Below are positions 2,555-61,590 of a stretch of DNA of 64,000 bases, in pieces. A program made the translations under genes and the position numbers. Position 1 is the stretch's first letter. Each line of letters opens with the position of its first letter. The DNA is from a virus (taxonomy: Duplodnaviria > Heunggongvirae > Uroviricota > Caudoviricetes), in the IMG/VR virus record IMGVR_UViG_3300023203_000736; one strand, given 5' to 3'. The notes below the pieces were generated by a model, which did no database searches, was not told the origin of the DNA, and saw nothing but the letters and a program-made list of their open reading frames with translations.

Positions 2555-3631
2555 TCACTTTCTGAATTGGGGTCGGGCCATCTGAGCGTAGAGGTTCTCT
2601 TCCAGCGAACCGTCCGATTGCAGTGCGATCACCTTCTGCTCCAAATGGTGACACTTCTGATCGCTTTCCTCGCGGCTCAGGTCACGGAACACCCAGCCGC
2701 TCGTGATCGCATCCCAACATTCGACCATGCGGTTAAGCACGGTCATCTGATGGGCATTGCTCACGCGGGCGCGTTGCTGGGCGACTCGCAACAGCGGTCG
2801 GCCTTCCGGCATGTATTTGCTGACGATTTCGTCGATGCAGCACACTACCTCTTCGTCGCCTATCTGCTCGCCAAGGAGCCAACCGTACATGCAGAGTTGG
2901 TCGGCGTACTCCTCGTTGCCGCTTTCCATGTACAACTGATTGATCTCGAATCCGTGGTGGTCATACGGCACGTAGTCCTTGTGTGCCGTGTTGTGACTCT
3001 TGCTCGCCTTGAACGGGGGGCCATAGCCGTCACGGCAAAGGCGGTAGTTCTTACTCGGAGAGGCTCCGTACTTCGAGCAGAAACCCTTGACCTTCCAATC
3101 GAGGATCACGTGAACCCCGCATTCGTGAATGAAGCGGCAGTCCGGCTTGCCGACGATCGGCACGCCTTTGATCTCGCTACGGACCTCGAATTCAAACCGA
3201 GGCGGCTCCTTCGATTTCTGGAGCATGGCCAACAGTTCGTCGAACGCGCCGGTCAGCACGTAGCAATCGAAGACGTATTTGCCCGCGTCCAGCGCGAAGT
3301 CGCGGTTGTGCGGCTCGACTTGATTCTCGAAGATCGCGGTGAAGTTAAACTGTGGATCAGCCCCTTTGCCGAACAGCCGTTCGTGCAAGGCAGACTTCGC
3401 ATAGGCGTCGAAGCCGGCACCGACCGACATATAGATTTCCTGGGCGATGCGCGGAGCGCGGGTCTCGGCCAAGTGTTTTATGTAAAACTCTTCGCGGTCC
3501 TTACCCCAGAGCGTCAGCGAAGAGTGGCTAAGGTAGGTTGGCTTTCTCACGAGTCGAGCATCTCCTTGATCCTGTGCCGCAAGTAATCGGCAGCCAAGTG
3601 ACCGTTGAGGGCGTTCCACGGTCGAGGGCAT
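2555..3631 (-). CDS. Putative PD-(D/E)xK-family nuclease. The start is uncertain; an internal Met is at 3430.
   Basis: KPDCRFIHECGVHVILDWKVKG reads as PD ... DxK. The C-terminal part is Cys/His-rich. Its 5' end overlaps the next gene if the first Met is used. Confidence 0.4.
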   Translation of the reverse strand: MPSTVERPQRSLGCRLLAAQDQGDARLVRKPTYLSHSSLTLWGKDREEFYIKHLAETRAPRIAQEIYMSVGAGFDAYAKSALHERLFGKGADPQFNFTAIFENQVEPHNRDFALDAGKYVFDCYVLTGAFDELLAMLQKSKEPPRFEFEVRSEIKGVPIVGKPDCRFIHECGVHVILDWKVKGFCSKYGASPSKNYRLCRDGYGPPFKASKSHNTAHKDYVPYDHHGFEINQLYMESGNEEYADQLCMYGWLLGEQIGDEEVVCCIDEIVSKYMPEGRPLLRVAQQRARVSNAHQMTVLNRMVECWDAITSGWVFRDLSREESDQKCHHLEQKVIALQSDGSLEENLYAQMARPQFRK

Positions 3632-4065: not shown

Positions 4066-4370
4066 GCCGGTTGACCGTCCCTCCCGTTGATGCACGGCTT
4101 ATTGAGGTCACGCATCGGAACGCCGTGCTGCTCGAAGCAGGCGACTCCGAGGGTCACGACTTTTCGCAGACTCTCCAAGGTCTTCTCGTCGCCGTCCTCG
4201 CAGGTCGCCGTGCGGAACGCCTGGTCAAGGTAGTGCCTCATGTAGACCAGGAACTCGCCGACAGTGCGATTGTGCTCCTGGAAAGTGCCGTTCCATTGGC
4301 GTTGCCCCCAGCGGCGGGCCTGGTAGGCACGCTCGCTGGCGATTGCGTCGAAAATCATGTCGATGGTCAT
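4062..4370 (-). CDS. Small acidic protein, possibly a MazG-like all-alpha NTP pyrophosphohydrolase.
   Basis: ERAYQARRWG and TVGEFLVYM resemble the EExxE / EVGEL helices of MazG-type NTP-PPases. This is a weak call. ATGA overlaps on both sides. Confidence 0.3.
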   Translation of the reverse strand: MTIDMIFDAIASERAYQARRWGQRQWNGTFQEHNRTVGEFLVYMRHYLDQAFRTATCEDGDEKTLESLRKVVTLGVACFEQHGVPMRDLNKPCINGRDGQPA

Positions 4371-5440
4371 TCGTTGTCCTGTGCGCCTTTCCGATCGAGA
4401 TAGTCCGCGCTCACGCTTTTCAAGATCAGCCGGCCGCCGGTCGGAGCGTAGAAGTGCTCTACCTGCGGAGTGATGACGCAGCCTTCTCGATCCTTAAAGC
4501 TGCTCTTGATCTTGTCTGGAGTAGCCAACGTCGTGGGACCGTAGGTGAACTGATTCACGAGGTCTTTGCTGAACGGTCCCTCATAAAGCACGGGAACCAA
4601 TTCGACGCCGAACTGGGCGCAGGCGGCTTTCAGAGCCTCCCAGTCGAGATACCTGCCGTTGACGCTGATGTCGAAAACACGATAGCCATCCCTGTCCTTG
4701 ACTCCGTAGTCCAAGTCCTGGACGCCCGACCCGTAGATTTCCCCGAAAACGATCACTGAGTTCTTCTCATCACAGAGATGCGTGAGGAGATTCAAGACGC
4801 ATTCGTCTTCGAGCGGCTTCCAGTAGATGCACGCCTTGCCTTCTTCCGGCTTCTTCCGTCTGGTCCGATGGCTCCCGGCCATGAACTCGAATTCGCCGTT
4901 CTTGAGGATCAGGCCGACCCGGCTATTCGTGCCGTGAATCTTTTCCGTGATCCGAACGAGCGTTCCTTCCGCGAAGGCGTCAGGAAACCGCCAGATGTTC
5001 TCGATCTCCGTATACTTGTGAAACTGGCTATCCTCTGGCGCGAGATCGCCGGGAAAATACTTGGCCGGCGGTTCGTACTTCTTGGCGGCCCACATCACCG
5101 ACACGTCGCTTCCCAGGGGATGGGCGCGCAAGAGGTCGGGAGCAGGGATGACGAAACCGAAGCTCGGTTCGCCTCGCAGCCGGCAGGCCGCCACCCGACA
5201 CTGGCACTTGATGCCGTCGAGTTCGGCGTGTTTGAGGTACTTCTGGATGCCGAGCGTCTGGCTGACATCCTGTGGGATCAGAATTCCGGGAGGGAAGAAG
5301 ACTACCCGCTGACCTTGTTGGAACTCGCCCTTGCCGACGATCGTCGTGAGGCCCTTGATGACCGCGATTTCCAACTTGCTCGCGTTCGGATGGGGCCTCA
5401 CTTCATCAATGGTGGTGAGTTCAACGAAGAGGTTGGACAT
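4367..5440 (-). CDS. ATP-dependent RNA ligase, Rnl5-like (DraRnl/NgrRnl type), with an N-terminal OB-like domain.
   Basis: Nucleotidyltransferase motif I is TEKIHGTN (KxHGxN). The N-terminal region runs MSNLFVELTTIDEV...KLEIAVIKG. No C-terminal Rnl2 domain is present. Start is taken at MSNLF (5440). Confidence 0.6.
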   Translation of the reverse strand: MSNLFVELTTIDEVRPHPNASKLEIAVIKGLTTIVGKGEFQQGQRVVFFPPGILIPQDVSQTLGIQKYLKHAELDGIKCQCRVAACRLRGEPSFGFVIPAPDLLRAHPLGSDVSVMWAAKKYEPPAKYFPGDLAPEDSQFHKYTEIENIWRFPDAFAEGTLVRITEKIHGTNSRVGLILKNGEFEFMAGSHRTRRKKPEEGKACIYWKPLEDECVLNLLTHLCDEKNSVIVFGEIYGSGVQDLDYGVKDRDGYRVFDISVNGRYLDWEALKAACAQFGVELVPVLYEGPFSKDLVNQFTYGPTTLATPDKIKSSFKDREGCVITPQVEHFYAPTGGRLILKSVSADYLDRKGAQDNE

Positions 5441-5711
5441 AGGCGCGTACCTTGAGCGCTGGAGGATGGTTGGAGGAAAAGCTAGCGCAACGCCAGGCGC
5501 GGTTGGCGAGTCCTCTTCGACAGAGACCGCTTGCGCCAGCAAATTGGACTGACTGTGGCGGGATCGCCGAGTAGTCTAAGTCAACCTGGGAGTCTCCCAA
5601 GTATCAGGGCGCACACTGCCTTTTCGAGCAACGTCTTTTCCGGCAGCTAGGGACTGCTCTCCAGCGTTGCCGCTGGCATATTGCTCAGCCCATCAACTCC
5701 CAGGTCGGAAG

Positions 5712-6990: not shown

Positions 6991-7706
6991 CGGTCTTCCA
7001 TTGGTCGCTCGTGGTCAATCTTCTCCGCAAGCACTTTCTCGACTCGTTGGACGGCCTCAGCAAAATACTTGGCGTCCTTCTCGATTCCCACGAACCGCTT
7101 CCCGCTTCGGATCGCAGCCTCGGCCGTGGCACCCGATCCCATGAACCAGTCGCCGATTGCTTCGCCCGGCATCAAGGTAGCGAGCCGTTGCAGGAGTTCG
7201 ATTGGCTTCTCGGCTGGGTGAATGCGGTCGCTTGTTGGCACCACGCGGCACGCCAGGACGGTCCCTTGCGTGTCCGTGAGCGTTGCGCCGGTGCCGGAGC
7301 ACGCCAGGATCAACTCGTGCTGATGCCGCCACGGGCGGCCCATTCCGATCCGCTCCTTGTTCCAGACCAGACAGACCGATCGCGGGAACAGGCTGTAGGT
7401 AGCTTCGTAGAACACCGGGTAGCTCTGGGCATCACAGAAGAACAGGTGGTGAGCATCCTTGCCCGCGACCTTCTGTGACAGGCCCACGATTTGCTCAAAC
7501 CAGCCCCGCAGGATGCTCAGGTCTGCGTAGCAACGAGTCCAATCGCACTGCTCGGCCCGGCTCGCATAATGCTGAGCCGGAAGGAAGAACGGCGGGTCGG
7601 TGATGACCGCATCGACCATGCCGGCAGGCAAACGTTTTAGGACGTGTTCGGCATCACCGCAGAACAGCGAAATATCGTCCTGCTGCCAATCAGGCTTCAA
7701 GGTCAT
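6975..7706 (-). CDS. DNA methyltransferase, beta-class N6A/N4C (motif IV before motif I).
   Basis: DAVITDPPFF (DPPF) is N-terminal and FMGSGATAEAA (FxGxG) is C-terminal. Start is taken at MTLKPDW, which overlaps the DNA ligase stop as ATGA. Confidence 0.7.
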   Translation of the reverse strand: MTLKPDWQQDDISLFCGDAEHVLKRLPAGMVDAVITDPPFFLPAQHYASRAEQCDWTRCYADLSILRGWFEQIVGLSQKVAGKDAHHLFFCDAQSYPVFYEATYSLFPRSVCLVWNKERIGMGRPWRHQHELILACSGTGATLTDTQGTVLACRVVPTSDRIHPAEKPIELLQRLATLMPGEAIGDWFMGSGATAEAAIRSGKRFVGIEKDAKYFAEAVQRVEKVLAEKIDHERPMEDRCRVL

Positions 7707-8794
7707 TCCACGTCCCTCCGTCGCCAATAGCGGGCTTCCTTTGGGATTCCGTCATCGGTGAGTTCCCGGTACTTGAACGTGACCGTCTGGCCTGTCTTGA
7801 AGCACCGCCCCTGGAAGAACTTGGGCATATCCTCGCCCGGATGCTCGGCCGCCGTGCGGCTCATGTCGGGGTTGAGAAACTCGCGCTCGGCGTCCGTCAG
7901 GCCGGCAAGCTCCAGTCGCTTGCCTTGGTAGTCCACGATTAGGGCACCGATCTTGCCCAAGAGTCGGCTACCCTTGTCTGTCTCACGGCCGCTGGTGAAG
8001 CCGACGATCGCGGCTTCCGCATCCTCGAAGGGCTTGAACTTGAGTAAGCCCTTATGCCGCTTCGGCGTCCAAGTCGCCATCGGATCACGGATCACGCAAC
8101 CCTCGCCTCCCTGGTCGAGCACCTTTCGCAGGAACTCGTTGACCATCTCACGAGCGGCCTCCTCATCCTCGGGGAGCCGAATCTGCTGGTGGATGAACAC
8201 GCAATCGTTCTGGGCTTCCAGGAACTCGCGCAGGAACATCAACTCATCGTTAAAGGTCGCGGGCGTCTTCACCCAGCCATAGCCCGGCATCTTGTCGATG
8301 CGAGACTTGAGCCATTGGTCGATCTTCTCGAACTCCAGATTGCACACCATGTTCGGATTCTTGATCTCTCCCGACATGAACACGTATGGTAAAGCTGGCG
8401 CACTGTAGACCGCATAACTGATCCGATGGAAACGAGGGTCGGGATCATCACCGGCGCAGATCGACCGGCAGAGTTGAAACCCGCCCCGACCGGCCCAGAG
8501 TTCGCCGTCTAGCGGACACGCTGGCAGAGCGTTGAGAAAATCATCCGGGGCCATGATCGGATTCCCATACCGCGACCACAGACCCGTGGCAGATGGTTTG
8601 AGCTTGGACTTTCTCTTGCCGGTTTTCGGGTCTGTCACGCTGGCCCACGGTATTTGTTCGGTAGGGACGCCACGGCTTACACCGCCGTCCCAGAAGCAGC
8701 GAGTTCCGTCGAGCTTCTCGCTGACCAGGTAGCCGGCGATCTTGTGTTTGTCTGGGTTGTAGGTGTCGGCCAATTGCAGAAACTCACGACGCAC
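7703..8794 (-). CDS. ATP-dependent DNA ligase.
   Basis: Motif I is SEKLDGTR (KxDGxR). The ligase/OB architecture is about 360 aa. Confidence 0.8.
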   Translation of the reverse strand: MRREFLQLADTYNPDKHKIAGYLVSEKLDGTRCFWDGGVSRGVPTEQIPWASVTDPKTGKRKSKLKPSATGLWSRYGNPIMAPDDFLNALPACPLDGELWAGRGGFQLCRSICAGDDPDPRFHRISYAVYSAPALPYVFMSGEIKNPNMVCNLEFEKIDQWLKSRIDKMPGYGWVKTPATFNDELMFLREFLEAQNDCVFIHQQIRLPEDEEAAREMVNEFLRKVLDQGGEGCVIRDPMATWTPKRHKGLLKFKPFEDAEAAIVGFTSGRETDKGSRLLGKIGALIVDYQGKRLELAGLTDAEREFLNPDMSRTAAEHPGEDMPKFFQGRCFKTGQTVTFKYRELTDDGIPKEARYWRRRDVE

Positions 8795-9068
8795 TGTTGC
8801 TCTCCAGGTACTTGAACGCGGACTCGCTAAAATCAGCGAGGAAACTGCCTGCGCAACCGCAGGCGAACACGATGAACGGATTGAGGCTAATCAGTGGGCC
8901 AAGCAGAACGCCGCACCAGAACCCCGAGCACTGATAGCACTCGAACAGGCCGTGGTACAACTTGGCGGGGAGATGTGCCTTCGCCCATTCGTCCACCGGC
9001 TCCATAATCTCGCTGTCCACAACGATGTGCGTCATGCCAATGACGGCAATGCAGAACAGCAAGATCAT
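8784..9068 (-). CDS. Small Cys-rich hydrophobic protein.
   Basis: YHGLFECYQCSGFWCGVLLGPLI... ATGA overlap with the upstream phosphoesterase stop. Confidence 0.35.
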   Translation of the reverse strand: MILLFCIAVIGMTHIVVDSEIMEPVDEWAKAHLPAKLYHGLFECYQCSGFWCGVLLGPLISLNPFIVFACGCAGSFLADFSESAFKYLESNSAS

Positions 9069-9856
9069 ATTGGCAACTCCGTTTGATTGGGGACCGGCTG
9101 CCGGTCCACCCAGTCGAACACGCCGACCGTGCCGCTATCGTCGATGCACACGTAACCATTGGTGTGCTCAGCCCAGGTGCCGCAGTTGTAGTTCCAAGTG
9201 CAGAGGCGGCCGGGCTGGTGCGTATGGCCCGTTATAAACACGTCGCAATCCGCCTTGAGGTAAAGGTCGTGCAGGTTGCGGTTGATTTCGACGAACCGAT
9301 CCGGCTTGCCTCGCAGCCAGTTCCATTTGCTCACAAGCCACTCCATGCGGCTCAATGAGCGAGCTTCCACCGTGCGGTACTTGTCGAGCATGGGGCCGCC
9401 GTTGCGGTCCTCTCGCAATCCGGTGTAGATTGCGGTGATCCGGCCGAGACCTGGCGTGTCGCCTACGCAGTATGGGTCCGCCTCGTGGCCGTGGAGGAAG
9501 CGGAACAATCTGCCGCCCTTATTGAGGCAGCAGCCGAGACACATCCGCTCGAAGAAGGGATGCGCCAGCCATCCGCCCTGTCCGACGAAGTAACGCAGAT
9601 CGGCGTCATGGTTCCCCAGAATGTAGGTGGCCTGCATCTTCGCCAGCCGATCAAGGAGCGACATCCGTTTCGTGAGTACCTTGCTCATGTTGCTCTGCCA
9701 CAACTCGAACAGGTCGCCGCAGATCACCAGCCGGCCGGCGTTGTCCTCGACCATATCGAGGAACGAGGCCAATTGCTTTTCACGATCGCCATACGCGAAA
9801 TTGTCGCGCGGCCCGCCGTCGCCCATGTGAAGATCACTGATTGCATAAACCGGCAT
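9065..9856 (-). CDS. Calcineurin-like metallophosphoesterase.
   Basis: The motif series is SDLHMGDG, GDLFE, GNHD, GHTHQ. Confidence 0.7.
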   Translation of the reverse strand: MPVYAISDLHMGDGGPRDNFAYGDREKQLASFLDMVEDNAGRLVICGDLFELWQSNMSKVLTKRMSLLDRLAKMQATYILGNHDADLRYFVGQGGWLAHPFFERMCLGCCLNKGGRLFRFLHGHEADPYCVGDTPGLGRITAIYTGLREDRNGGPMLDKYRTVEARSLSRMEWLVSKWNWLRGKPDRFVEINRNLHDLYLKADCDVFITGHTHQPGRLCTWNYNCGTWAEHTNGYVCIDDSGTVGVFDWVDRQPVPNQTELPI

Positions 9857-16300: not shown

Positions 16301-17935
16301 CTAGTTGCGAATGAAGTCCGCCATCAAGGCAGGGCAGGATGCGTCGAATCCGACGACATCCAACATGCCGGCGTCGTTCGGGTCGGCGATCGTAAACCCG
16401 GTGGCCGTCATGCCAACGACAATCAGCTTGGCATTGATGCCCGTGGCCTGACGGTACTGCATGAGGGCCTGGCTGGGATGGATGTGCCCAGCCCAGGTCT
16501 CATTGTCCGTGTAGACCACGAAAGCATCGACTTCGAGCCGATTCTTGAGGGCATAGATCATCGGGAGAGCGCAGTCGGTGCCGCCCATCGGAATCTGCTC
16601 GATCGCCTGGATCACGCCGTTGAGACCCTTCCGTTTCGAGATGTCCACGGGCACCAGTTCGTGCGAGAAGCCGACCACGTGAGTCTGCGGCTCGACCTTC
16701 TGAGTCACCATCGACATGCAGGCTGAAGCCTTTCGGGCGTCCAGGTGCGTGCCGGCTAGGTGCTCCCAACCCATCGACCCGGACACGTCCAGGGCCAGCA
16801 AGTGCCGCTTGCCGGTCGGCTCGACGGTATCGAAGGCCGCGTAGAAGGCGTCCTCCAAGGCGTCGGTGATCTGGGGCACCGGCTGCCACGTCAGGCTGCC
16901 TTTGACGCCGTGGCCGCTACCATAGGTGTCGGCCGCGATCAGGATAGACAGCGGATGCACGCGAGCGCCTTTGAGCCGCTCCTTGTTCGTGAGCGTGTCG
17001 CACACCAGCTTCGTCGCCAACGACAGCGGTTTGAGCAGGCCAACGCTGGTCATCTTGCCGAGGTTCCGAATCATGGCCGTGGGCGGCAGATTCGGTAGCA
17101 AGGCGTCCCAAACCTTCGGGTTGCCCAGCAGCGTGTTGGGCACGTGTTCCAGGGTCACGCCATAATTCTGAATCAACTGGATGGCTGCCTTCTCGTCGGC
17201 AGTACCGAGCTTGTTGATCTCGTTAAAGCCAGCAATGAGGGCCAGCGCCTGACCGCCGTAGGCCACAGCGAACCCGGCGCTCCGACCGTTGGTGTATGCC
17301 TCTGGCAGGGTTCCGTGCGTGAGCCAACGATAGATCGCGTTCCGTTGCGAATCAGTTGTCTTCGGATGGCTCAGCCGCAGCACATCGCGGTGCGTGTAGC
17401 CGGCGCGGTTACGGTACTTCGTAACCTGATAGGCCAGCTTATCCGCAGGCTTGGCGTTGTACCAAGCCGCAACCGCCTCACGCAGGCCACGGCCCCAGCC
17501 GCGCAGTTCCTTGCAGTTGGCGACGAACTGGAACAGGTGGGTCGCCGTGCGGCAGACGCGAGGCATCGCGGCCAAGGCTCGATGCCGGAGGTAGCCCTGG
17601 TCCTGCTGGCTCGCCAGCAAAGCCAGGGCGAAGATTGCAGGATCGTTCTTTGGAGCACGTCCCAACTCGCTGATCGCGGCGATCGTCTCGACGGCGCGAA
17701 TGGCGTCGGTCTTCCCGCATTCAATCACCACGTTGGCATTGTCGGCCGTCAACTGCTGCTCGCCCACATAGTAGGTGCCGCCCTCGCTGCCAAGGATCAG
17801 GAACCGCTCCAGACGGCTCCAGCAATCGAGAGTGTGGCTGTAGCCGCCGGCGCTGTTCTCCGCCTGGCGCTTGCCGGGAATCGGCCGGCTCTGCGGAGTA
17901 ACTCGGGACGACACATGCTTGGCAAGGGTCTGCAT
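16301..17935 (-). CDS. rsr: Ro60 ortholog Rsr (TROVE domain plus C-terminal vWA/MIDAS).
   Basis: [22 protein letters not shown] and PAIFALALL are colinear with human Ro60 [22 protein letters not shown] and PMLFALAIC. C-terminal [11 protein letters not shown] is a DxSxS MIDAS motif. Confidence 0.9.
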   Translation of the reverse strand: [544 protein letters not shown]

Positions 17936-17959
17936 CGAACGATCTCCAGGGTAGAAGGA

Positions 17960-18019
17960 TTGGGCAAACAGTTGCCGTGGGCGTCATCATTGCCAGATAA
18001 CCCACGCGCTTCGGCCCAA
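17960..18019 (-). ncRNA. Y-RNA-like stem-loop 4 (Ro-binding-type helix with bulged C), 25 nt upstream of the rsr ATG.
   Basis: Minus strand reads UUGGGC-C-GAAG...CGUGGG-loop(UUAUCUGGCAAUGAUGACG)-CCCACG...GUUU-GCCCAA. The lower helix TTGGGC/GCCCAA has a bulged C followed by GAA/UUU. Confidence 0.45.
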
Positions 18020-18026
18020 TGTTTTG

Positions 18027-18093
18027 CCGGGCAAAGAGCGCCGATCGGTGTTTGTCAACTAAAGGTGAGATAACCGATTCAGCTTCGGCCCGG
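18027..18093 (-). ncRNA. Y-RNA-like stem-loop 3.
   Basis: CCGGGC-C-GAAG-CUGA-AUCGG-loop(UUAUCUCACCUUUAGUUGACAAACA)-CCGAU-CGGCGCU-CUUU-GCCCGG. The helix has 11 bp with a single bulged C. GGGCCGAAG..GUUAUCUCA matches vertebrate Y RNA GGUCCGAAGG..GUUAUCUCA. Confidence 0.5.
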
Positions 18094-18095
18094 AG

Positions 18096-18226
18096 GCACG
18101 CCGGTAGGACTTGAACCTACGACCACAGGTTCCCATTGTGATAACGCTCCCAATTCGGCCCATCAGGCAAGGGACTTGGAAGCGGTTTTCTGATACCTGT
18201 GCTCTGACCAACTGAGCTACGGCGTA
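18096..18226 (-). ncRNA. tRNA-like / Y-RNA chimera A (YrlA-like).
   Basis: Acceptor TACGCCG/CGGCGTG, D-arm GCTC-AGTTGGTCA-GAGC and T-arm GTAGG-TTCAAGT-CCTAC are present. The anticodon position is occupied by a ~65-nt insert that contains UGGGCCGAAUUGGGAGCGUUAUC. Confidence 0.55.
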
Positions 18227-18235
18227 CATATAAGC

Positions 18236-18357
18236 GGACACCGGCGGGAGTCGAACCCGCAACACCCCGTTATCAGCGGATAACGCTTTGCCTTCGGCCC
18301 AAGGGGCAAGGGATGGAAAGCGCGTCTTAGGTGCTTTGCCGATTAAGCTACGGCGTC
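18236..18357 (-). ncRNA. tRNA-like / Y-RNA chimera B (YrlA-like).
   Basis: Acceptor GACGCCG/CGGTGTC, D-arm GCTT-AATCGGCA-AAGC and T-arm GCGGG-TTCGACT-CCCGC are present. The insert CUUUCCAUCCCUUGCCCCUUGGGCCGAAGGCAAAGCGUUAUC has 17 of 23 nt identical to the hY1 motif UGGUCCGAAGGUAGUGAGUUAUC. Confidence 0.55.
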
Positions 18358-18370
18358 CACAATCGTCCCT

Positions 18371-18408
18371 CCTTTGGATGACGTAGCTCAATTCGCTTTC
18401 CGTTCAAC
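18371..18408 (-). promoter_or_regulatory. Conserved 38-nt element R1. It starts at the ParB-like stop codon and lies immediately 5' of Y-RNA chimera B.
   Basis: Minus strand: TGAACGGAAAGCGAATTGAGCTACGTCATCCAAAGGAGG. It is nearly identical to R2 at 24421-24458. Confidence 0.4.
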
Positions 18409-19204
18409 TTTTGTCCCGTTTTGCCGATTCGATGTCGTGATCGAGTTCTTCGTCGTTGATATATCCCGCACACCACGCTCCAAACCGCGTAACCAGTCCG
18501 CCCAGACCGGCTTCGAGCAATTGCCCGATGCGGGCATTGATCTCTTCCTTGCCGCGCCGATAGCGAAATGTCCTCCGATACCTGGGATTGACGTTGATCT
18601 TACGCTTGTTCTTGCCGCGAGCCGCGATGATCTCGTTCGCGGCTTGAATCTGCTCATCAGGCGGCAGCTTCACCAAGGCGTCAACGTCGAGCAGCGTCAG
18701 CATACGAGCGGCGACCTTCTCGCGGAGTTCCTCGGGAAGCTCCATGATCCGAAGCCGCTGATGTACCCAACGTGTATCCCGATTCATTTCCTGGGCAATC
18801 GCCCGAAGACTTGCACCCTTCGGAAACCGCCTGGCGATTGCCTGTGCCTGTTCAAGAGGATTGAGGTCTTCGCGTTCCAGGTTCTCCGTGAGGTTCAGAA
18901 TCTCGGCCGCCCGATCGGTGAGGCCCCGCCGGATGTTCGCCGGAATGCCGGTCCATCTCAGAAACGTCTTGACCGCCGCCAGACGACGGAAACCCGCAAC
19001 CAAGCGATACGGCTCCACAAAGCCGGCTTGGCTGTCCTCGCGCTGTTGAAGAATCACCGGAATTTCAAGTCCCGCCTGCGCGATATTGTCCGCTAGCCCC
19101 TTGACGGACTGAAATGTAAACGCAGTGCGGCAGTTGAAGTCGGGATCAACCCAGATGTCGGTGAGCGGAACGTCGTACACGTCATAGCGACTAAGGCGTT
19201 CCAT
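18404..19204 (-). CDS. ParB-like nuclease-domain protein.
   Basis: LVAGFRRLAAV is the GxRR ParB-box. Start is taken at MERLSRYDVY (19204), because the longer ORF runs over tRNA-Asn. Confidence 0.65.
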   Translation of the reverse strand: MERLSRYDVYDVPLTDIWVDPDFNCRTAFTFQSVKGLADNIAQAGLEIPVILQQREDSQAGFVEPYRLVAGFRRLAAVKTFLRWTGIPANIRRGLTDRAAEILNLTENLEREDLNPLEQAQAIARRFPKGASLRAIAQEMNRDTRWVHQRLRIMELPEELREKVAARMLTLLDVDALVKLPPDEQIQAANEIIAARGKNKRKINVNPRYRRTFRYRRGKEEINARIGQLLEAGLGGLVTRFGAWCAGYINDEELDHDIESAKRDKS

Positions 19205-19252
19205 AGATGCCTCGGTAGACGAAAAACGGCCCGACCGAAGCCGGGCCAAAAG

Positions 19253-19325
19253 CTGCATCGCCTGGAGTCGAACCAGGAACCACAGCATTAACAGTGCCGC
19301 GCTCTACCATTTGAGCTACGATGCA
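19253..19325 (-). tRNA. tRNA-Asn (anticodon GTT).
   Basis: TGCATCG-TA-GCTC-AAATGGTA-GAGC-G-CGGCA-CTGTTAA-TGCTG-TGGTT-CCTGG-TTCGACT-CCAGG-CGATGCA-G. All arms are canonical. Confidence 0.85.
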
Positions 19326-19331
19326 ATGGGG

Positions 19332-19673
19332 CTAACTCAGGGTGTCGGTAACGAGCGAATCAAGCGGCACTCCCGTCGAGACCACGCATTCCCTGCGCGG
19401 AAAGGGGATGATGTATTCGCGGTCCTCCGGTTCCTCACCAGGACCAGGGGCCGTCAGGGCTTTGACGCCCTCTTTGCCGACCGGCTCATACGTCTCGCGG
19501 AAGACGTCGTCCCTGCAAGGGTAGAGTTCGTCCTTGACGCCCTGGACAATCCAATCGCCAGGCTCAGCGATCAAGTCATGGCCGTGGAGCGTCTGGCTTC
19601 CTGGGATCACGACCCGTTGCATGACGCGCTCGGCATTGACAACCACTGGTTTCTTGCGGAAGGCAGCAGGCAT
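19332..19673 (-). CDS. Hypothetical protein.
   Basis: Start MPAAFRKKPVVVNAERV. It ends 7 nt from tRNA-Asn. Confidence 0.4.
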   Translation of the reverse strand: MPAAFRKKPVVVNAERVMQRVVIPGSQTLHGHDLIAEPGDWIVQGVKDELYPCRDDVFRETYEPVGKEGVKALTAPGPGEEPEDREYIIPFPRRECVVSTGVPLDSLVTDTLS

Positions 19674-19814
19674 CACGATCCTCCAGAGAACCCGGCCGGG
19701 GCCGGACGATCCGACAGGTCCGGCCGGGAGCAAATGGCAGCGGGTCCGGGCGAAATCTGAGGCCAATCAACCTCTAGCTTGCTGGCTACGTTCGCCTCTT
19801 CGCCGCTGCCTCGA

Positions 19815-21125
19815 TCATTTGAGTGGTCCAATATCCCGGCCGCCGTCAATGATGTAGCGCTGCGGCCCATTTTTTTCATTCTCGTGCCGCAGCTTCACGT
19901 TCAGCCGCCAGGTCAACCCATGCTTGGGGTTGACCCCGTGGAACCATTGGGCCGGCTCGCGGTAGCCTGACAGGCTGTTGTAGGCAAAGGCGTCTGTTCC
20001 CAGCCAACTGCCGTTCACGAGCAACTCACCGTCCACATCCGATAGCGTGCTCGCCGCGTGATGGTGCCCACAGCAGAAGTAACGGCACCGCTTGGCACCG
20101 GCCGCCGCGCCCAAGGCGATCAAGCCCTTCTGACGCCGGACCATGCCGTACCACGGGATTCCAAGGCTGCTGCGGCAGTCATCGCCGTGGCTGACGTTAA
20201 AGCCGACCCCATTGATATTGACGTTCGCCGACCAAGCGTCCGGGATCGTGAAGTACACGTTCTCCAGGCCACGGCAATGCAGCCGGGCGATCTCCCCGAC
20301 CAGGTAATCCCAGTTGTCATGGGCACCGAGGTAGTCCTTCTTTGGCGTCCGCCGGCCGTGGTTGCCCGCAAGATACAGGACGTTGACTTGCTCGAAGTGG
20401 GCCGCCAAGTCGCGGTACATCAGGGCGTGAAGCTGCCCGATCGCCAGGCAGTTCTTGAACTGGTTGCGGTAGTAGGACCGCTCGCAGGCCCGGTGGATTT
20501 CGCCGCTGGTGAAGTCGCCGTAGGCGAGCACCCAAAGTACGGGGAAATGAAACTTGGGCGTGAGGGTGTTCTGGGTCCATTCAACGACCGTGTTGACGTA
20601 TCGTTCGGCGCGAGCGCAGGAGATCGGGAAGTTGTATTCCTCCAAACCGCCGACTTCCTCGGGCCGAACCACGGCGTCGTGATGGCCGTCGCTCACGTGC
20701 ATGACGCAGTGCTCGACGATCTGCGCCTTGGGCCGTAATACGATCTGCGAAGGCAGGGCCTTGAAGGGCTTAATGCGCTGTTCCATCTCGGCGGTGATTG
20801 CCCGAAACAAGCCCTGCGTCTTGGCGCTGGCCTTGCTCTTGGCCCGCTCGCGGTTGCGTTCCTCGGTTAGATGGATGATCTCGGCTTCAAGCTCCAAGAT
20901 TCTCTTGTTGGTCGGGTCGTGCTCCTCCAGCTTCTTCCGCTGGCCGCCGGCCCTCCTCGGTACTGGCTCTCCGTTTGGCCACAGGACTTCCTTGTGAGCG
21001 CGTCCTGTGGCAATGTCACTGACCAGCGAACGGCTGACCTTATACTTCTTGGCAATCGCCGCCTGGGTCGTTTTGCCGGCGATGTCGGCCTTGATGCGCG
21101 TGGCCTTTTCACTGCTGATCTTCAT
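19815..21125 (-). CDS. HTH domain plus calcineurin-like metallophosphoesterase-domain protein.
   Basis: N-terminal TQAAIAKKYKVSRSLVSDIATGR is an HTH. Phosphoesterase signatures are HVSDGHHD, LAGNHG and CGHHH. Confidence 0.55.
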   Translation of the reverse strand: MKISSEKATRIKADIAGKTTQAAIAKKYKVSRSLVSDIATGRAHKEVLWPNGEPVPRRAGGQRKKLEEHDPTNKRILELEAEIIHLTEERNRERAKSKASAKTQGLFRAITAEMEQRIKPFKALPSQIVLRPKAQIVEHCVMHVSDGHHDAVVRPEEVGGLEEYNFPISCARAERYVNTVVEWTQNTLTPKFHFPVLWVLAYGDFTSGEIHRACERSYYRNQFKNCLAIGQLHALMYRDLAAHFEQVNVLYLAGNHGRRTPKKDYLGAHDNWDYLVGEIARLHCRGLENVYFTIPDAWSANVNINGVGFNVSHGDDCRSSLGIPWYGMVRRQKGLIALGAAAGAKRCRYFCCGHHHAASTLSDVDGELLVNGSWLGTDAFAYNSLSGYREPAQWFHGVNPKHGLTWRLNVKLRHENEKNGPQRYIIDGGRDIGPLK

Positions 21126-21139
21126 AGATACCTCTCCAG

Positions 21140-23146
21140 TCAGGCCACGAGTTCCTCGACGATCACTTCATCGTCACTGCCCTCCTCATCGAGAGCGTCC
21201 CGGAACTCACCGAGCGTCATCAATTCCAATTTGCGATTGGCCTGGATGACTTCCAGCACGCGGGCATCCGTCGGCAGATGAATAAGGTCCACGATGTCAC
21301 AGCCGAGGTTTTCATCCATTCCTTTGCGGTGGATGCGGTCTTCGGACTGTGCTCGATATTCCGGCTTGAAGCTGTTGCTCCAATACACGGCCATCCGCGC
21401 CTCGACCAGCGTGAGGCTCATTCCGCCTGATTCCGGGTGTGACGCGAAGGCAACGCGCTGATTGTCCCGATCGGACCAGAACTCCAGCGATTCTTCGCCG
21501 TTCTGAGTAATGACATTGCCCTCACGATCAGTGACCTCAAAGCCGCGTCCGTCGCAACGAAAGACCGACCATCCATCCTTCCGACAGATTGTGGCAACCC
21601 TGTCCACGCTGCCTGTGAACCCGGCGAACACCACGATGCGACCGTTCTCCTCGCATTCTTCGAGGAGCATTTTCAGCGCCTTTTCCTTCGGACAAGGAAC
21701 CTCGCGTGTGTAGCGTATGACTCTCGGAACCGTCTTCGTGCCCCCACAACGAGTGCAGGGCACCTTGCGTTTCTGGAGCTTTGCAGCGAACTCCTTGCTG
21801 AGCATGTCGATAGCGCTATAACTGGCTTCCTCATCCGCCGGATCAAACCACTCTTCGATCTCACCGCAACTGTTGGGGCAATGCGGGCAAGGGACTTCGC
21901 CATCCTCCCGGTCCTGGTACTGAAATCCATCGCTCAACTCTCGAAGCAGAGTCAAACCAGTAATCGTGTTCGGAGCGCCGTCCATGATCGCTTGCGCCAC
22001 CCGAAGCACGCTGGGATTCGGCTTACAGATGATCTTTCGATACCGTTTGTCCGGCAGGGTCAGGCAGTCCTTCTTGTGCTTGATGACTACCAAGCCTTTG
22101 AGCCGCTCGTGCATGTAGGCGACTTCGTTGACGCTTGCCTCGAAGGCATGGACCTCGCCAGGATCAAGGATGCCATCAAACTCATGCGGCCCTTCCTTCT
22201 CGAATAGGCCGCAATGCCTGCATTTCCGCTGGTCGTCCTTCCAGCCAATGCGCTTGGGGAACATGCCGGCATCGTATTGGTGCATCACGACAAAGGCGCA
22301 TCGTTGCTCCAGCGCCTTCCTGCTGCCTTCGCGCAGAAAGCCCGGCCAGGCGATTTCGCACTGACTCCACCAATCAAGAGGCGATTTCGGCGAAGGGGTG
22401 CCGCTCATCTCGATCGCGTAGCCGTCAAAGCTGAACTTCTCCCGGATGAAGTCAGCCAACCGCTGGGCGGCCTGCGTTCGCTGACTCGTATCGCCCTTGA
22501 GCCGGCTGGACTCGTCGAAGATCACGCCCTGGGGAAGCTCGTTCTCGGCATTCCACTGGTCCATCCGCCGAGTGAGTTCTTCGTAGGTGATGAACTCGAT
22601 GCGGATAGGTCCAGAGAAGTCGAAGCCCCACTTGGCGAACTCGCGCCTGATGTTGGGAATCGAACTCTTGGGTCCAACCCACCACCAGTAGAGCACGCCG
22701 CTCTTCTCGATCACCTTCTGGGCCGCCAGGGTCTTGCCCGTTCCCATCTCGGCCGCCCAGAGTTGGTAGTGATAAGTGAGGCCGCTGTCCGCCAGATCGC
22801 ATTGATGTGGCATCAGGGCCGCGGGAACGCCGTTAAGCCGCGCACCGGAATAGTCATGCCGGATCGGATCGCGGTCGAACCAAGCATAGACATCCTCGCC
22901 CATGAGGAACGCAAGCTGAAAGCGATTGCGAGGACAGTCTTCAACGGACCAGATTTTGCGTCCGTCCTCGTCCTCGTCGCGCCCGTGCCAGCGCGAGCCG
23001 CGCATGGCCTTGATCTCTTCCTTTAGCGAAAACGGCGACTTGAGGAACCAGATTCGGCCGTCCTTGTATTCCAAGGTGGCCGCCGAGCGGATGAGCTTGC
23101 CGCTCGAAGTCCGAGTTGTCAGCTTGCATTGAATGATGTCAGGCAT
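21140..23146 (-). CDS. SNF2-family (SF2) helicase with zinc-ribbon inserts.
   Basis: Motif I is AAEMGTGKTL. Motif II is VIFDESSRLK (DExx). A C-terminal helicase domain follows. Cys clusters are CPHCPNSCGE and CTRCGGTKT. Confidence 0.8.
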   Translation of the reverse strand: MPDIIQCKLTTRTSSGKLIRSAATLEYKDGRIWFLKSPFSLKEEIKAMRGSRWHGRDEDEDGRKIWSVEDCPRNRFQLAFLMGEDVYAWFDRDPIRHDYSGARLNGVPAALMPHQCDLADSGLTYHYQLWAAEMGTGKTLAAQKVIEKSGVLYWWWVGPKSSIPNIRREFAKWGFDFSGPIRIEFITYEELTRRMDQWNAENELPQGVIFDESSRLKGDTSQRTQAAQRLADFIREKFSFDGYAIEMSGTPSPKSPLDWWSQCEIAWPGFLREGSRKALEQRCAFVVMHQYDAGMFPKRIGWKDDQRKCRHCGLFEKEGPHEFDGILDPGEVHAFEASVNEVAYMHERLKGLVVIKHKKDCLTLPDKRYRKIICKPNPSVLRVAQAIMDGAPNTITGLTLLRELSDGFQYQDREDGEVPCPHCPNSCGEIEEWFDPADEEASYSAIDMLSKEFAAKLQKRKVPCTRCGGTKTVPRVIRYTREVPCPKEKALKMLLEECEENGRIVVFAGFTGSVDRVATICRKDGWSVFRCDGRGFEVTDREGNVITQNGEESLEFWSDRDNQRVAFASHPESGGMSLTLVEARMAVYWSNSFKPEYRAQSEDRIHRKGMDENLGCDIVDLIHLPTDARVLEVIQANRKLELMTLGEFRDALDEEGSDDEVIVEELVA

Positions 23147-23657
23147 GATATTCCAGCAAGAAACCGCTGCGGTCGGGAGCGGTCCTCCGCTCGAAGTTGT
23201 TCCATACGGAGGTCAACCCCGCCCGATCAAACAGCAGGAGGATTTTCGAGTAACAGGTTCGTACAGTGGGCGGCGTGACTTCGCTGGTTCCGGCGGCCAC
23301 GGCGTCTCGCCATTGGGCCAGGGTTCCGGTGAGAACGGCCAGATTGACATTGGGGGCCGTTGTCTCGGCTCGGACGAAAGACATGCCGGAGGTTCGCTCC
23401 AGGATGTCCAGCAGATCACGCTCGTCGGCGATCACAAGAACGCTGAACGAGACGTGGGACAACAGATTGGGAGTGATTGCGCCGTCTTCTTCCTTGAGTG
23501 CCGCCAGGCACGACAGGAATTTCTCGGCGTCCGCCAATTGGCGATGGCTGGCGTCGGCAGCACCGGCGATGTTGTAGCCCAAGGCATGATGCGTCAGGCT
23601 CAAAAGCGTGGTGAAGTCGATCACCGGCTGGGTGATGAGCACGGCTTCGACGGGCAT
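23139..23657 (-). CDS. Hypothetical protein.
   Basis: Start MPVEAVLITQPV. It overlaps the helicase start by 8 nt. Confidence 0.4.
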   Translation of the reverse strand: MPVEAVLITQPVIDFTTLLSLTHHALGYNIAGAADASHRQLADAEKFLSCLAALKEEDGAITPNLLSHVSFSVLVIADERDLLDILERTSGMSFVRAETTAPNVNLAVLTGTLAQWRDAVAAGTSEVTPPTVRTCYSKILLLFDRAGLTSVWNNFERRTAPDRSGFLLEYHA

Positions 23658-23658
23658 G

Positions 23659-24033
23659 TCAACACGCCTCCCAATCGTACTGCCAATCCCAGTCGTCGTC
23701 TGACGAATCGTCCATGTCGTCTGGGTCGGAGAGGCATGTGACCTCAACCTCTATCTGACTTTCGTATTCCGGTTGAAGGCGAGCCGACAGAGCCTCGTGG
23801 ATTGCGTCCCGACAATCGCCAGGATCAATTCCCCACCAATCCGCATCAACCTGAATCGCAAGCCGGCGGCCGTCGCTGCTTTCCTCAATGCCCTGAAACG
23901 CGACATCTACAACGCGCCCCTTATAGTCGAAGGCGTTATCCAAGGCTTCATGGATGACTTCCTTCCAAGAGGGGCGATTGCGCGGCCTCCATCGGCCCAG
24001 GTAAAGATAGATGTCACAAGCTACCCGACTCAC
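23659..24033 (-). CDS. Hypothetical acidic protein.
   Basis: 124-aa ORF with a D/E/W-rich C-terminus. Confidence 0.4.
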   Translation of the reverse strand: MSRVACDIYLYLGRWRPRNRPSWKEVIHEALDNAFDYKGRVVDVAFQGIEESSDGRRLAIQVDADWWGIDPGDCRDAIHEALSARLQPEYESQIEVEVTCLSDPDDMDDSSDDDWDWQYDWEAC

Positions 24034-24420
24034 GATATGATCTCCGTCTCAATTGCCATGCCGTTGGGCAGGCAAGAGAATGGCCGGTTACTGCGTGTTT
24101 CGCTGGCGTCGGTATAATCTCCGCTAGTCCACACGCCCTTGTTGAGATTCCCACCCTGGGCCGCCCACCACCGAAACATGAGGCAGCCACCCTCACCGAC
24201 CCTGCAAACCCGTCCATGATGTGCGTCCAACAGGAGAGGCGCGACGGGTATGTTCTGCAATCGCCGCCGCAAGGACGGCGAAAGAACCCTGTCCACGCAT
24301 GGTGGACGGATCAAGAGATGCTCCACCCGCCGGGATTCTTTACGGAGCGGTCACACCTAGCCCGGCGGCACACCGCTTCTCAGGTGGAGCGTGCAATCGC
24401 TGATTCGCCAGGCCGTCTCC

Positions 24421-24458
24421 CCTTTGGATGACGTAGCTCGACGCGATTTCCGTTCAAC
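24421..24458 (-). promoter_or_regulatory. Conserved 38-nt element R2, starting at the stop codon of gene 24454-25197.
   Basis: Minus strand: TGAACGGAAATCGCGTCGAGCTACGTCATCCAAAGGGGAG. It matches R1 at 33 of 38 positions. Confidence 0.4.
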
Positions 24459-25197
24459 GAGCGCGCGATTTCGTGCTCGCATCCTCCTTGACCGTCTCGA
24501 CTTCGGAAGCGCCCGGATGGGTGAACTTCTCGATCTCCTCGGCGATCACGGCGACAGCCGGCAGGTTCGTGAACGGCACGGAGCAGGACTGCACGTCCGG
24601 CACATGCCACGAGTGGCCGCGCTTGTTCTTGGCCAGTCGGACCTTGAGGGTGCAGGGCATGGGACCGTGGGGCTGCATCTTGCTCACGTCCGAGCCGGCG
24701 GCCTTCTTGGCGTCGATCTGGGCCTGGCTCAAGGGCAGAAAGACCGCGATGTCGCCCGCGATCGGACGGGTGCTCTTGGAGCCGCAGAAGAACTCCAGGA
24801 AGCGGCCCGAGGATCGCTCGAACACAAGGAAGCTCGTCCCGTACATGCAGCCGGAGTCGCTCTCCTGGCTGCGGGCCGCGATGTCCTTGAAGTCGTCTCT
24901 GGTCGGGTCATAGTTGGCGATGATGGCTTCCTTGTCGCTCATGTCGAGTGCCTTGAGCCGGCGGGCCAAGGGAAGCACGTCGATCGAGGGACCGAGCTTG
25001 ACGATCTTCTTGTCCGACTCGGGAATCCCATAGGTGCCGGGAGGAATCAGACCTTCATTGATCGCGTTGCCCTTGGAGAACAACTGGAGGCGACCGAGGA
25101 AGCCGGAGCTTCTCGACATTTCCTCGAACTGCTCGTCGGAGCCAAGCTGGGTGGAGGGAAGCTGGTTGAGATCGACAGGGACTAGAGTGGTACTCAT
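24454..25197 (-). CDS. Hypothetical protein.
   Basis: 247-aa ORF with no recognisable motif. Confidence 0.45.
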   Translation of the reverse strand: MSTTLVPVDLNQLPSTQLGSDEQFEEMSRSSGFLGRLQLFSKGNAINEGLIPPGTYGIPESDKKIVKLGPSIDVLPLARRLKALDMSDKEAIIANYDPTRDDFKDIAARSQESDSGCMYGTSFLVFERSSGRFLEFFCGSKSTRPIAGDIAVFLPLSQAQIDAKKAAGSDVSKMQPHGPMPCTLKVRLAKNKRGHSWHVPDVQSCSVPFTNLPAVAVIAEEIEKFTHPGASEVETVKEDASTKSRAR

Positions 25198-25242: not shown

Positions 25243-26121
25243 CTAACTCGAATCTATGGGCGCATCCAGAACCTCTCTTTCTCTGCGGGCACGCACCCCA
25301 GCTTCCTGTTGCCGCACGCTGGCTTTGTCGAGATGGCAGGCCCACCGCAGGCCGGCGTAGAAGCCATCGAGCACGTTCAGGCAATCCTCGGCCGCGCAGA
25401 TCAGTGCTCCGACTTCCTTCTTTTCAATCTCGTGTACGATCTCTTTGACGTGATGAAGATGGGCCTCGGGTCGGAACTCGTCCGAATAGAAGGCGTCCAT
25501 CTTGCCCTGCTTGACCGCCTCCCGGAACTGCTTGACGCACGCCGCCGCCAACGGCTTGAATTCCCTGGCGGGCATGACCTTGGCCCGATCCACGTAGTCC
25601 TTTTGCATGGACCGTGGAATCGTGGCCAACTTGTAAGCGTTCTCAATGGGAATCTCGCCCCGATCGACCATCACCTGAATCTCTTTCAGCAGGTTGGTCA
25701 GATCGAGGCACTTCCCGACCCAGCGAGGCTGCTTGCGGATGAGACAAGCCAACTCGCCTTGGGTCATGCCGGGATTGCGCACCAGCAGCCTCTTGAGTTG
25801 CTGGGCATACTCGGCCTGCTTCGTTTCCGGCGAGATCGCGTTCGCCTGAAGCATCAGGACAAGAGCTTCGTCATCGCTACACTCCCTGATGATGCAGGGC
25901 AGCGCGTCCCGGCCGACTTCGCGGGCGGCTGTGTAGCGCTGGAGGCCGTTGATGATCTCGTAGCCGCCTTCGACAGGCCGCACGAGAAGCGATTGCAGGA
26001 TGCCCTTTTCCCGGATGCTGTCTCGCAGTTCCAGGTACTCGACGCTATCCCGATTCACGCCTCGCAGTTTGATCTTGGGTTCTCGCAGGACGTGGATCGG
26101 GAGGAACTCGATCTGGTCCAT
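25243..26121 (-). CDS. ParB/Srx-like domain protein.
   Basis: EIINGLQRYTAAREVG is a ParB-box. Start is taken at MDQIEFLPIHVL (26121). The upstream extension is an artefact of the inverted repeat. Confidence 0.6.
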   Translation of the reverse strand: MDQIEFLPIHVLREPKIKLRGVNRDSVEYLELRDSIREKGILQSLLVRPVEGGYEIINGLQRYTAAREVGRDALPCIIRECSDDEALVLMLQANAISPETKQAEYAQQLKRLLVRNPGMTQGELACLIRKQPRWVGKCLDLTNLLKEIQVMVDRGEIPIENAYKLATIPRSMQKDYVDRAKVMPAREFKPLAAACVKQFREAVKQGKMDAFYSDEFRPEAHLHHVKEIVHEIEKKEVGALICAAEDCLNVLDGFYAGLRWACHLDKASVRQQEAGVRARREREVLDAPIDSS

Positions 26122-26142
26122 GCGACGACTCCCTTTTCCACA

Positions 26143-26178
26143 AATACAGTAGCCTAGATCGCCACGATTCCTCAATGA
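26143..26178 (-). promoter_or_regulatory. Promoter-like motif P1 (TTGAGG-N18-TACTGT), 22 nt upstream of the 26121 start.
   Basis: Minus strand: TCATTGAGGAATCGTGGCGATCTAGGCTACTGTATT. It forms an inverted-repeat partner with P2 and is repeated at 61363-61398. Confidence 0.4.
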
Positions 26179-26261
26179 AAAGCGGACGAGGCGATGAATT
26201 GATTAGATGGAGCCGTTACAACCAGACCATGAGCGCCGCCGATGGCTGAAAAGTTTGGAAG

Positions 26262-26297
26262 TCATTGAGGAATCCGAGGAATCTAGGCTACTGTATT
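26262..26297 (+). promoter_or_regulatory. Promoter-like motif P2, divergent from P1 and upstream of the primase gene.
   Basis: TCATTGAGGAATCCGAGGAATCTAGGCTACTGTATT. Confidence 0.4.
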
Positions 26298-61340: not shown

Positions 61341-61362
61341 TGGGAGACCGTTCCTTTCTACC

Positions 61363-61398
61363 AATACAGTAGCCTAAAAACGTCGATTTCCTCAACGA
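61363..61398 (-). promoter_or_regulatory. Promoter-like motif P3 (third copy of P1/P2).
   Basis: Minus strand: TCGTTGAGGAAATCGACGTTTTTAGGCTACTGTATT. It has the same 22-nt spacing to the start codon as P1. Confidence 0.4.
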
Positions 61399-61590
61399 CT
61401 TCGCCGAATTTCCCGGCTTTTCACCGTTTTCGATGGGATTTTCAATTCATCGCGTCAATTCGCACCGCAAGTCGTTGTTTTCGTCGCGTCAGACAGAAAA
61501 TCAACCCGAGAAGTGAACGGTTCTTGTCGCGGCATTCGTCATCCAAAGGAGGCACTTCATCTCAGAGGCACTCAATCCCGGAGATCGGCA

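Follow-up and report, generated by a model that had tools for sequence, protein, structure and literature searches.

What is the function of a short element that recurs at the ends of two unrelated genes of an uncultured phage? The question arises from the 64,000 nucleotides of DNA analysed here (the window), which belong to the Caudoviricetes record IMGVR_UViG_3300023203_000736 of IMG/VR. A sequence-only reading of this DNA had noticed the element at two places on the minus strand and had suggested a phage-specific promoter, an RNA processing site, or a recombination or cassette-junction site. Our analysis favours the promoter and found no specific support for the other two options. The element is a genuine, functional-looking regulatory repeat, most probably of the promoter class and, judging from its sequence, we consider it rather likely that its copies are phage promoters of one small class, built like those of alternative, extracytoplasmic function (ECF)-like sigma factors. 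We favour this option because the motif is bipartite with fixed spacing, occurs in three copies that are co-oriented with the units they precede, keeps its positions in related phages with a sequence specific to each lineage, and is accompanied in the window by a separate, sigma70-like promoter class.

Both copies reported before are present (Table 1), but a third copy on the plus strand had been missed; it came up when other intergenic regions were read and has the sequence (G)TGAACGG-TTCTTGTCGCGGCATT-CGTCATCCAAAGGAGG. All counts of motif copies given here cover the 64-kb window alone. In a repeat survey of the window, copies 1 and 2 constitute repeat family D11, which is 45 nt long, 39/45 identical (87%), with its copies 6050 nt apart, and their minus-strand consensus is GTTGAACGGAAA-x-CG-xx-T-x-GAGCTACGTCATCCAAAGG-x-G-x-GACG. 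The 19-mer core, GAGCTACGTCATCCAAAGG, has two exact occurrences where 0.01 are expected, and an exact-repeat survey identified it as the longest exact repeat of the window. When the pattern TGAACGG-N16-CGTCATCCAAAGGAGG was searched, exactly three sites were recovered (0, 2 and 0 mismatches for copies 1, 2 and 3), with 0 expected; chance similarity is excluded. The earlier count of 33 matches in 38 positions is borne out for copies 1 and 2 (34/38 over the span then delimited, 33/39 for the TGA...GG string then quoted), although calling the repeat exact was an overstatement, as the two copies differ at six positions, four of which cluster in the spacer.

Table 1. Location of the motif copies in the window and of features discussed together with them.
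Feature	Position	Strand	Details
Copy 1 (site 1)	18364-18408	minus	TGAACGG 18406-18400; 16-nt spacer 18399-18384; CGTCATCCAAAGGAGG 18383-18368
Copy 2 (site 2)	24414-24458	minus	TGAACGG 24456-24450; spacer 24449-24434; CGTCATCCAAAGGGGA 24433-24418
Copy 3 (site 3)	61514-61552	plus	TGAACGG 61514-61520; spacer 61521-61536; CGTCATCCAAAGGAGG 61537-61552
Three tandem Y RNA-like/tRNA-like modules	17950-18358	minus	downstream of copy 1
Ro60/Rsr orthologue	16301-17935	minus	vWA_Ro60 2.5e-68, TROVE 1e-46
ParB-like protein	18404-19288	minus	ParB_N + HTH_ParB
ParB-like protein	25243-26175	minus	ParB_N + HTH_ParB
Sigma70-family protein, 224 aa	10859-11533	minus	phrog_351 5.5e-14; SigF structure 1l0o_C 3e-11
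TTGAGG-N18-TACTGT copy	26146-26175	minus	points at ParB1
TTGAGG-N18-TACTGT copy	26265-26294	plus	points at primase-like gene
TTGAGG-N18-TACTGT copy	61366-61395	minus	points at gene 60795-61364
RNA ligase	4367-5542	minus	Pfam RNA_ligase 1.9e-20
ATP-dependent DNA ligase	7703-8794	minus	
Metallophosphoesterase	9065-9856	minus	

The motif is composed of a -35-like block, TGAACGG, a variable spacer of 16 nt, and a -10-like block, CGTCATC(C), which continues into a conserved downstream stretch: the 9-12 nt after CGTC are conserved as well, including an A-rich or purine-rich region, CAAAGGAGG, behind CGTCATC. At the defined positions, copies 1 and 3 agree without exception (23/23), whereas their spacers match at only 3/16, which is the chance level. 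Two conserved blocks around a free spacer, held at a fixed spacing that suits contacts by sigma regions 4 and 2, are what promoters in general display, and the spacing is also kept in four relatives (L144, L062, L063 and L143). This pattern argues for selection on a protein-recognition site of the sigma type and not for simple duplication. A neutral recent duplication or chance resemblance without function might explain why the spacers of copies 1 and 2 have GAGCTA in common; we give this explanation practically no weight, given that zero matches are expected by chance, that copy 3 matches in the two blocks only, and that the architecture is retained at orthologous sites where the flanks are only about 60-80% identical.

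The hexamers originally proposed, TTGAAC-N16-TACGTC, did not withstand this comparison. The bases before CGTC are variable (CTA; ATT in the ATTCGTC of copy 3; CCA in the CCACGTC of relative L144), 'TA' is thus kept neither in copy 3 nor in L144, and the conserved block is CGTCATC(C). The motif also lacks the TAnnnT -10 hexamer of the housekeeping sigma70 (TTGACA-N17-TATAAT), and none of the three copies was called in scans with the sigma70 consensus. As noted before, there is no obvious hairpin: folding of the element and its surroundings gave no significant structure (z = -0.3 to -0.95). Likewise, we found no terminator-like site at copies 1-3, no inverted repeats, dyad symmetry or tandem iterations within the element, and no Rfam match at the element or downstream of copy 2. 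Several other candidate features were dropped. Copies 1 and 2 contain a small hairpin, CGUC..GACG, that neither copy 3 nor L144 retains; 9 nt of the spacer (TGAGCTACG) match the tRNA-like 5' ends in reverse complement, but such a match does not exceed chance (we estimate an expectation of about 0.1-0.2) and is absent from copy 3; and an Alphaproteobacterial or Caulobacter-type housekeeping promoter at GCTACGTC, compared with the Caulobacter-type consensus GCTANAWC, would depend on a 'GCTA' that is conserved in neither copy 3 nor L144.

Which type of sigma factor could recognize such a site? In many ECF-sigma promoters, CGTC at positions -13 to -10 is combined with an AAC-type -35, and GGAACTT is the -35 element of sigmaE (PMC3397946). 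All three window copies carry TGAAC and CGTC, and therefore pair an AAC-containing -35 with a CGT(C) -10. According to the mechanism we propose, RNA polymerase with a non-housekeeping sigma factor would bind the TGAACGG and CGTCATC blocks and begin transcription some 6-10 nt beyond CGTC. With CGTC placed at -13 to -10, the start would be about 9-10 nt beyond it, within AAAGGAGG or immediately behind it. Copy 1 would then launch or boost expression of three Y RNA-like RNAs, Ro60/Rsr, and downstream replication genes, while copies 2 and 3 would do the same for the helicase/exonuclease block and for a rightward block of small genes, respectively.

The location of the copies fits this assignment, as each of them occupies non-coding DNA immediately upstream of a unit with the same orientation. 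The minus strand carries all genes between 26175 and about 1500. Copy 1 is followed by the Y RNA-like modules, Ro60/Rsr, a family A DNA polymerase and, at a greater distance, the sigma gene, and it ends ~10-13 nt before the first tRNA-like/YrlA-like RNA, in agreement with the 13 nt given earlier. The tandem Y RNA-like/tRNA-like modules upstream of Ro60/Rsr number three, not two. They contain a tRNA model match with a 61-nt insert (18096-18226), a YrlA match (18176-18289) with 42.7 bits, which is below the Rfam gathering score of 69, and repeat family D14, GATAAC..TTCGGCCCA, at 17996, 18140 and 18279. In 22 phages, YrlA-like RNAs had already been recognized beside Ro60 and on its strand (PMC4201824). 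Downstream of copy 2, about 130 nt of non-coding DNA precede small open reading frames (ORFs), a helicase-like protein, and an exonuclease. Copy 3 occupies the intergenic space between divergent genes, and the ATG (61591) of a conserved 79-aa gene follows 39 nt downstream. A promoter is required for the rightward genes, and the rightward strand at site 3 yielded no sigma70-like candidate; this favours copy 3, the only candidate there, as their promoter.

Copy 1 precedes non-coding RNAs, and the conserved tail of the element, CCAAAGGAGG, is strongly Shine-Dalgarno-like, and the downstream genes do not use it for their translation. A separate ribosome-binding site, GGAGA, stands 7 nt before the ATG of the 79-aa gene, and a properly spaced start codon follows the tail only in copy 1, where it belongs to a 5-codon ORF inside the tRNA-like RNA. 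The element could thus act at the RNA level as a signal in the 5' leader, be it a Shine-Dalgarno-like stabilizer that recruits 30S subunits or a cleavage site for a GGAG-type endoribonuclease of host or phage. We regard this as quite improbable: an RNA signal provides no rationale for TGAACGG at fixed spacing upstream, no structure is conserved, and the orthologous variants TTAAATAGAG and TTAGTAGAGG no longer resemble a Shine-Dalgarno sequence. Moreover, most of the tail would not be transcribed if transcription began about 9-10 nt after CGTC. The absence of a hairpin, together with a tail that is unused and lost in variants, instead argues for a role at the level of the DNA rather than the ribosome, and a promoter with its start in AAAGGAGG or shortly after it would explain why the tail neither serves translation nor is kept.

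Additional evidence for a promoter comes from related phages. There were no cultured relatives at the DNA level or in a search with the 247-aa protein, and three different patterns retrieved no exact or near-exact match to the motif from IMG/VR. A metagenome motif scan returned one true relative (L056) and three chance matches, and a scan of a genome collection one chance match only. Gene order is more widely shared, with 55 IMG/VR contigs displaying the arrangement ParB1, g247, o202, helicase, exonuclease. The closest relative, IMGVR_UViG_3300050333_000134, is 76-83% identical to the window at the DNA level and exceeds 90% in the Y RNA region. The motif of the window is missing from this relative, which carries a 34-nt variant of its own, AAAACCCCTCCCCGCCTGTCGTCTTAAATAGAGA, identical at sites 1 and 3. 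L144, a contig of a metagenome-assembled genome at NCBI, is about 78-80% identical to and collinear with window positions 20466-1. Its site 1 reads TGAGCAG-N16-CGTCATCCAAAGGAG, overlaps the ParB2 stop, and is separated from the first Y RNA-like RNA by ~80 nt, compared with 13 nt in the window. The orthologous site 1 is TGACGGC-N16-TGTCGTC in L062 and TGGGGAA-N16-CGTCGTC in the more distant L063, and site 3 of L143, likewise more distant, is TGAATCA-N16-TGTCGTG. Ten instances aligned on YGTC share TGA..-N16-YGTCRTC-YYA. Taken together, the architecture is old and keeps its position at sites 1 and 3, while its sequence is lineage-specific and uniform within a genome.

Site 2 has a more complex history. 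L056 contains a near-identical copy 2 with one substitution, in the spacer, and shares ~105 nt downstream of it before the sequences diverge completely. The element is absent from this site in L061 and L001, where a different conserved sequence (a hairpin plus CCTGCAAAGGCTTA...), not present in the window, extends up to the shared GCCTGGCGAATCAGCGA. In L061, a TAG occupies the same codon position as the g247 stop, which indicates that the replaced segment starts exactly at the stop and leaves g247 intact. The window lineage has placed a motif copy at this site. Given that site 2 is a mosaic hot spot, at which the window also has an extra hairpin insertion of ~80 nt, the element might be regarded as a recombination substrate or a cassette junction bordering exchangeable modules, similar to the promoter-early stem-loop (PeSL) cassettes that provide a documented precedent (PMC2839356). 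We consider this very improbable. Because gene order around and between the copies is conserved in the 55 relatives, the 6 kb between copies 1 and 2 are not an insertion, and a 6-kb cassette flanked by direct repeats is ruled out. The element is also devoid of a stem-loop or terminator part, whereas PeSL cassettes combine a promoter with a terminator stem-loop, and a role in recombination would merely follow from the promoter being repeated and would not compete with the promoter reading.

Several further observations concern the surroundings of site 2. The ~80-nt insertion relative to L061 is located just downstream of copy 2 (~24322-24400, minus strand) and folds into a long stem, GCTCCACC...GGTGGAGC; in L056 the similarity is limited to the 5' two thirds of the insertion, which puts a mosaic breakpoint inside it. 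The minus-strand stretch ~24080-24310 is about 95% identical to the closest relative (L061, ~3110-3340), while flanking coding DNA is 76-83% identical. A hairpin at its start (24307-24291) is kept with a compensatory G-C to A-T change, and a 1-nt indel relative to L061 suggests that the stretch may be non-coding, i.e. an RNA or a regulatory or origin region, and not the 98-aa ORF 24030-24326. In many related phages (L009, L014, L017, L024, L031, L037, L046, and others), a conserved hairpin, CCCTGCCGG...CCGGCAGGG, comes just after the g247 homologue and precedes a tRNA-like sequence beginning with GACGCCGTGGTGTAAGCAGCAC, which suggests another tRNA-like RNA at site 2 in those lineages.

Two of the three copies are found just downstream of ParB-like gene clusters, and partition sites often lie just downstream of parB genes. 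In addition, the conserved 16-nt block is longer than a sigma factor alone normally needs. The element might accordingly be an operator or centromere-like site for a phage DNA-binding protein (ParB-like or another helix-turn-helix regulator) with promoter activity being secondary. This appears unlikely to us, since the dyad symmetry and tandem repetition of parS-type sites are missing and the bipartite geometry of 7 + 16 nt, with its free 16-nt spacer and CGTC block, fits sigma recognition. Furthermore, the ParB2 orthologue of the closest relative is 92% identical and yet faces a very different motif variant at the same site, and copy 3, like its orthologues, is remote from all ParB genes and sits at the very place that requires a promoter. 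As a side note on annotation, the ParB-like ORF next to copy 1 is listed with 294 aa, a length at which it runs into tRNA-Asn (19253-19325) and the terminator-like hairpin of this tRNA (19248-19227) on the minus strand; the true start of the ORF is probably the ATG at 19204, which is preceded by GAGG and gives 266 aa.

The promoter interpretation also accounts for the feature that had made the element conspicuous, i.e. its exact and seemingly unusual registration with stop codons. The overlap itself is real at copies 1 and 2: the upstream ORFs end at 18404 (the ParB-like gene) and 24454 (gene 24454-25197), and their TGA stops (18406-18404 and 24456-24454) lie inside TTGAAC. It is not an intrinsic feature of the element, as copy 3 is intergenic, and copy 3 and the orthologues GTGAACGG and GTGAATCA keep the TGA where no ORF ends. 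The TGA therefore belongs to the motif, and the registration with stop codons is incidental. In a compact genome, upstream ORFs would simply run into the promoter and end on the TGA of the -35-like block.

The window contains a second promoter-like repeat, which we identified by the exact-repeat survey and a pattern search. TTGAGG-N18-TACTGT, embedded in TTGAGGAA...TAGGCTACTGTATT, is present in three copies and fits the housekeeping TTGACA/TAnnnT form. With a canonical sigma70-like class in the same window, TGAACGG-N16-CGTCATC represents a second class, and the phage has at least two promoter-like classes. Two TTGAGG-class copies form an inverted repeat with ~30-nt arms (26143-26297) in the divergent region between ParB1 and the primase-like gene. 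The TTG starts listed at 26175 and 26265 fall inside these motifs and are probably too far upstream.

Who reads the TGAACGG motif? The sigma factor gene previously pointed out in the leftward block is real, as documented by its sigma70-family matches, and its product is the most plausible candidate for the reader, although a host alternative sigma factor is possible. We favour the phage protein because phages 7-11 and phiEco32 provide a precedent for phage-encoded readers and because this phage has a sigma70-family gene of its own. Its match to TIGR02937, the general sigma70/ECF superfamily model, reaches 2e-8 and 34 bits, below the cut-off of 42.9. ECF (group 4) sigma factors are without region 3 and usually have an anti-sigma partner; we identified no anti-sigma gene here, although no search aimed at one was made.

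Several observations weigh against the assignment as ECF-like phage promoters. The best hidden Markov model matches of the phage sigma are SigF, SigG, and SigK (group 3), which score above the curated ECF models, and its gene is located ~7 kb downstream of copy 1 on the same strand. The 18 nt between AAC and CGTC are at the long end for ECF promoters, and only three copies were seen in the 64-kb window. The -35-like block is poorly conserved in some relatives (GACAATG in L142, GGCGGCG in L004), and others have lost the AAC (e.g. TGAGCAG and TGACGGC). Uniformity within a genome could also result from gene conversion alone. Finally, the sigma homologue P0002 (87% identity) has the same region-4 recognition helix as the protein of the window. 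If P0002 came from the relative with the different motif variant, the argument for co-evolution of sigma and promoters would weaken. A scan for a sigma orthologue in the contig of the closest relative found none.

We nevertheless put forward, as a tentative and rather doubtful extension, that the motif may define the transcription class of the phage's own sigma, which would place the Ro60/Y RNA module and the replication genes under viral control. The promoter set would then evolve in concert within each genome, by replacement of the whole set or by homogenization through gene conversion at fixed positions, and so track changes of the sigma factor. The leftward block that carries Ro60 and the Y RNA-like RNAs also encodes an RNA ligase, an ATP-dependent DNA ligase, and a metallophosphoesterase (Table 1), which hint at a theme of RNA repair or RNA quality control. 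Elsewhere in the window (51576-52098, plus strand), six diverged 37-nt units, with 65-78% identity to the reference copy and a spacing of 54 or 108 nt, probably encode a protein repeat of 18 or 36 residues.

If the promoter assignment is true, it opens a first way into the transcription programme of a family of uncultured phages for which we found >55 related IMG/VR contigs and which, besides Ro60/Rsr and several Y RNA-like RNAs, encodes an RNA ligase and a sigma factor of its own. It would also reveal which genes are co-regulated with the Y RNA module and constitute a clear case of promoters that are fixed in position while their sequence is replaced between close relatives. With the two motif classes, TTGAGG-N18-TACTGT and TGAACGG-N16-CGTCATC, transcription units in these genomes can be annotated. 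Our results change no general principle, because it is well established that phage-specific promoter motifs occur as repeats. In our opinion, the most interesting point is whether the phage sigma reads the motif and whether promoter sets co-evolve with the sigma factor in this family; if so, these uncultured phages would harbour a natural series of switches in sigma/promoter specificity.

Known regulatory systems resemble the element to different degrees. PeSL cassettes of T4-type phages, in which a terminator stem-loop is joined to a sigma70-like promoter and which abound in hyperplastic regions (PMC2839356, PMC4122927), are likewise short conserved regulatory repeats at phage gene junctions that are tied to mosaic breakpoints; in contrast, the element described here is not of the sigma70 type, lacks a stem-loop, and borders on conserved core genes. 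ECF-type (group 4) promoters include E. coli sigmaE sites, with GGAACTT-N16 and a -10 element, and the CGTC -10 is used by B. subtilis sigmaW, sigmaX, and sigmaM and by T. tengcongensis RpoE1 (PMC3397946). Our motif shares with them the bipartite layout, GAAC in the -35, a CGTC/TGTC -10, the lack of TAnnnT, high stringency, and a fixed spacer length. It departs from them in its 18-nt AAC-CGTC distance and in the 9-12 conserved nucleotides downstream of CGTC, and the only sigma factor encoded nearby scores better against the sporulation-type sigmas of group 3 than against curated ECF models. Phage-encoded sigma factors offer another comparison: gp47 of phage 7-11 reads GTAAtg-N16-aCTA and gp36 of phiEco32 reads tAATGTAtA, at similar genome positions (PMC8948821). 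While the motif sequence is unrelated to these and here precedes replication and recombination genes, Y RNA-like RNAs, and Ro60 instead of late structural genes, the overall arrangement is alike. In each case, a divergent sigma70-family protein of the phage is accompanied by a handful of near-identical motifs upstream of gene blocks, promoters of the host-sigma70 type are found in the same genome, and related phages keep the positions of the motifs while their sequences differ.

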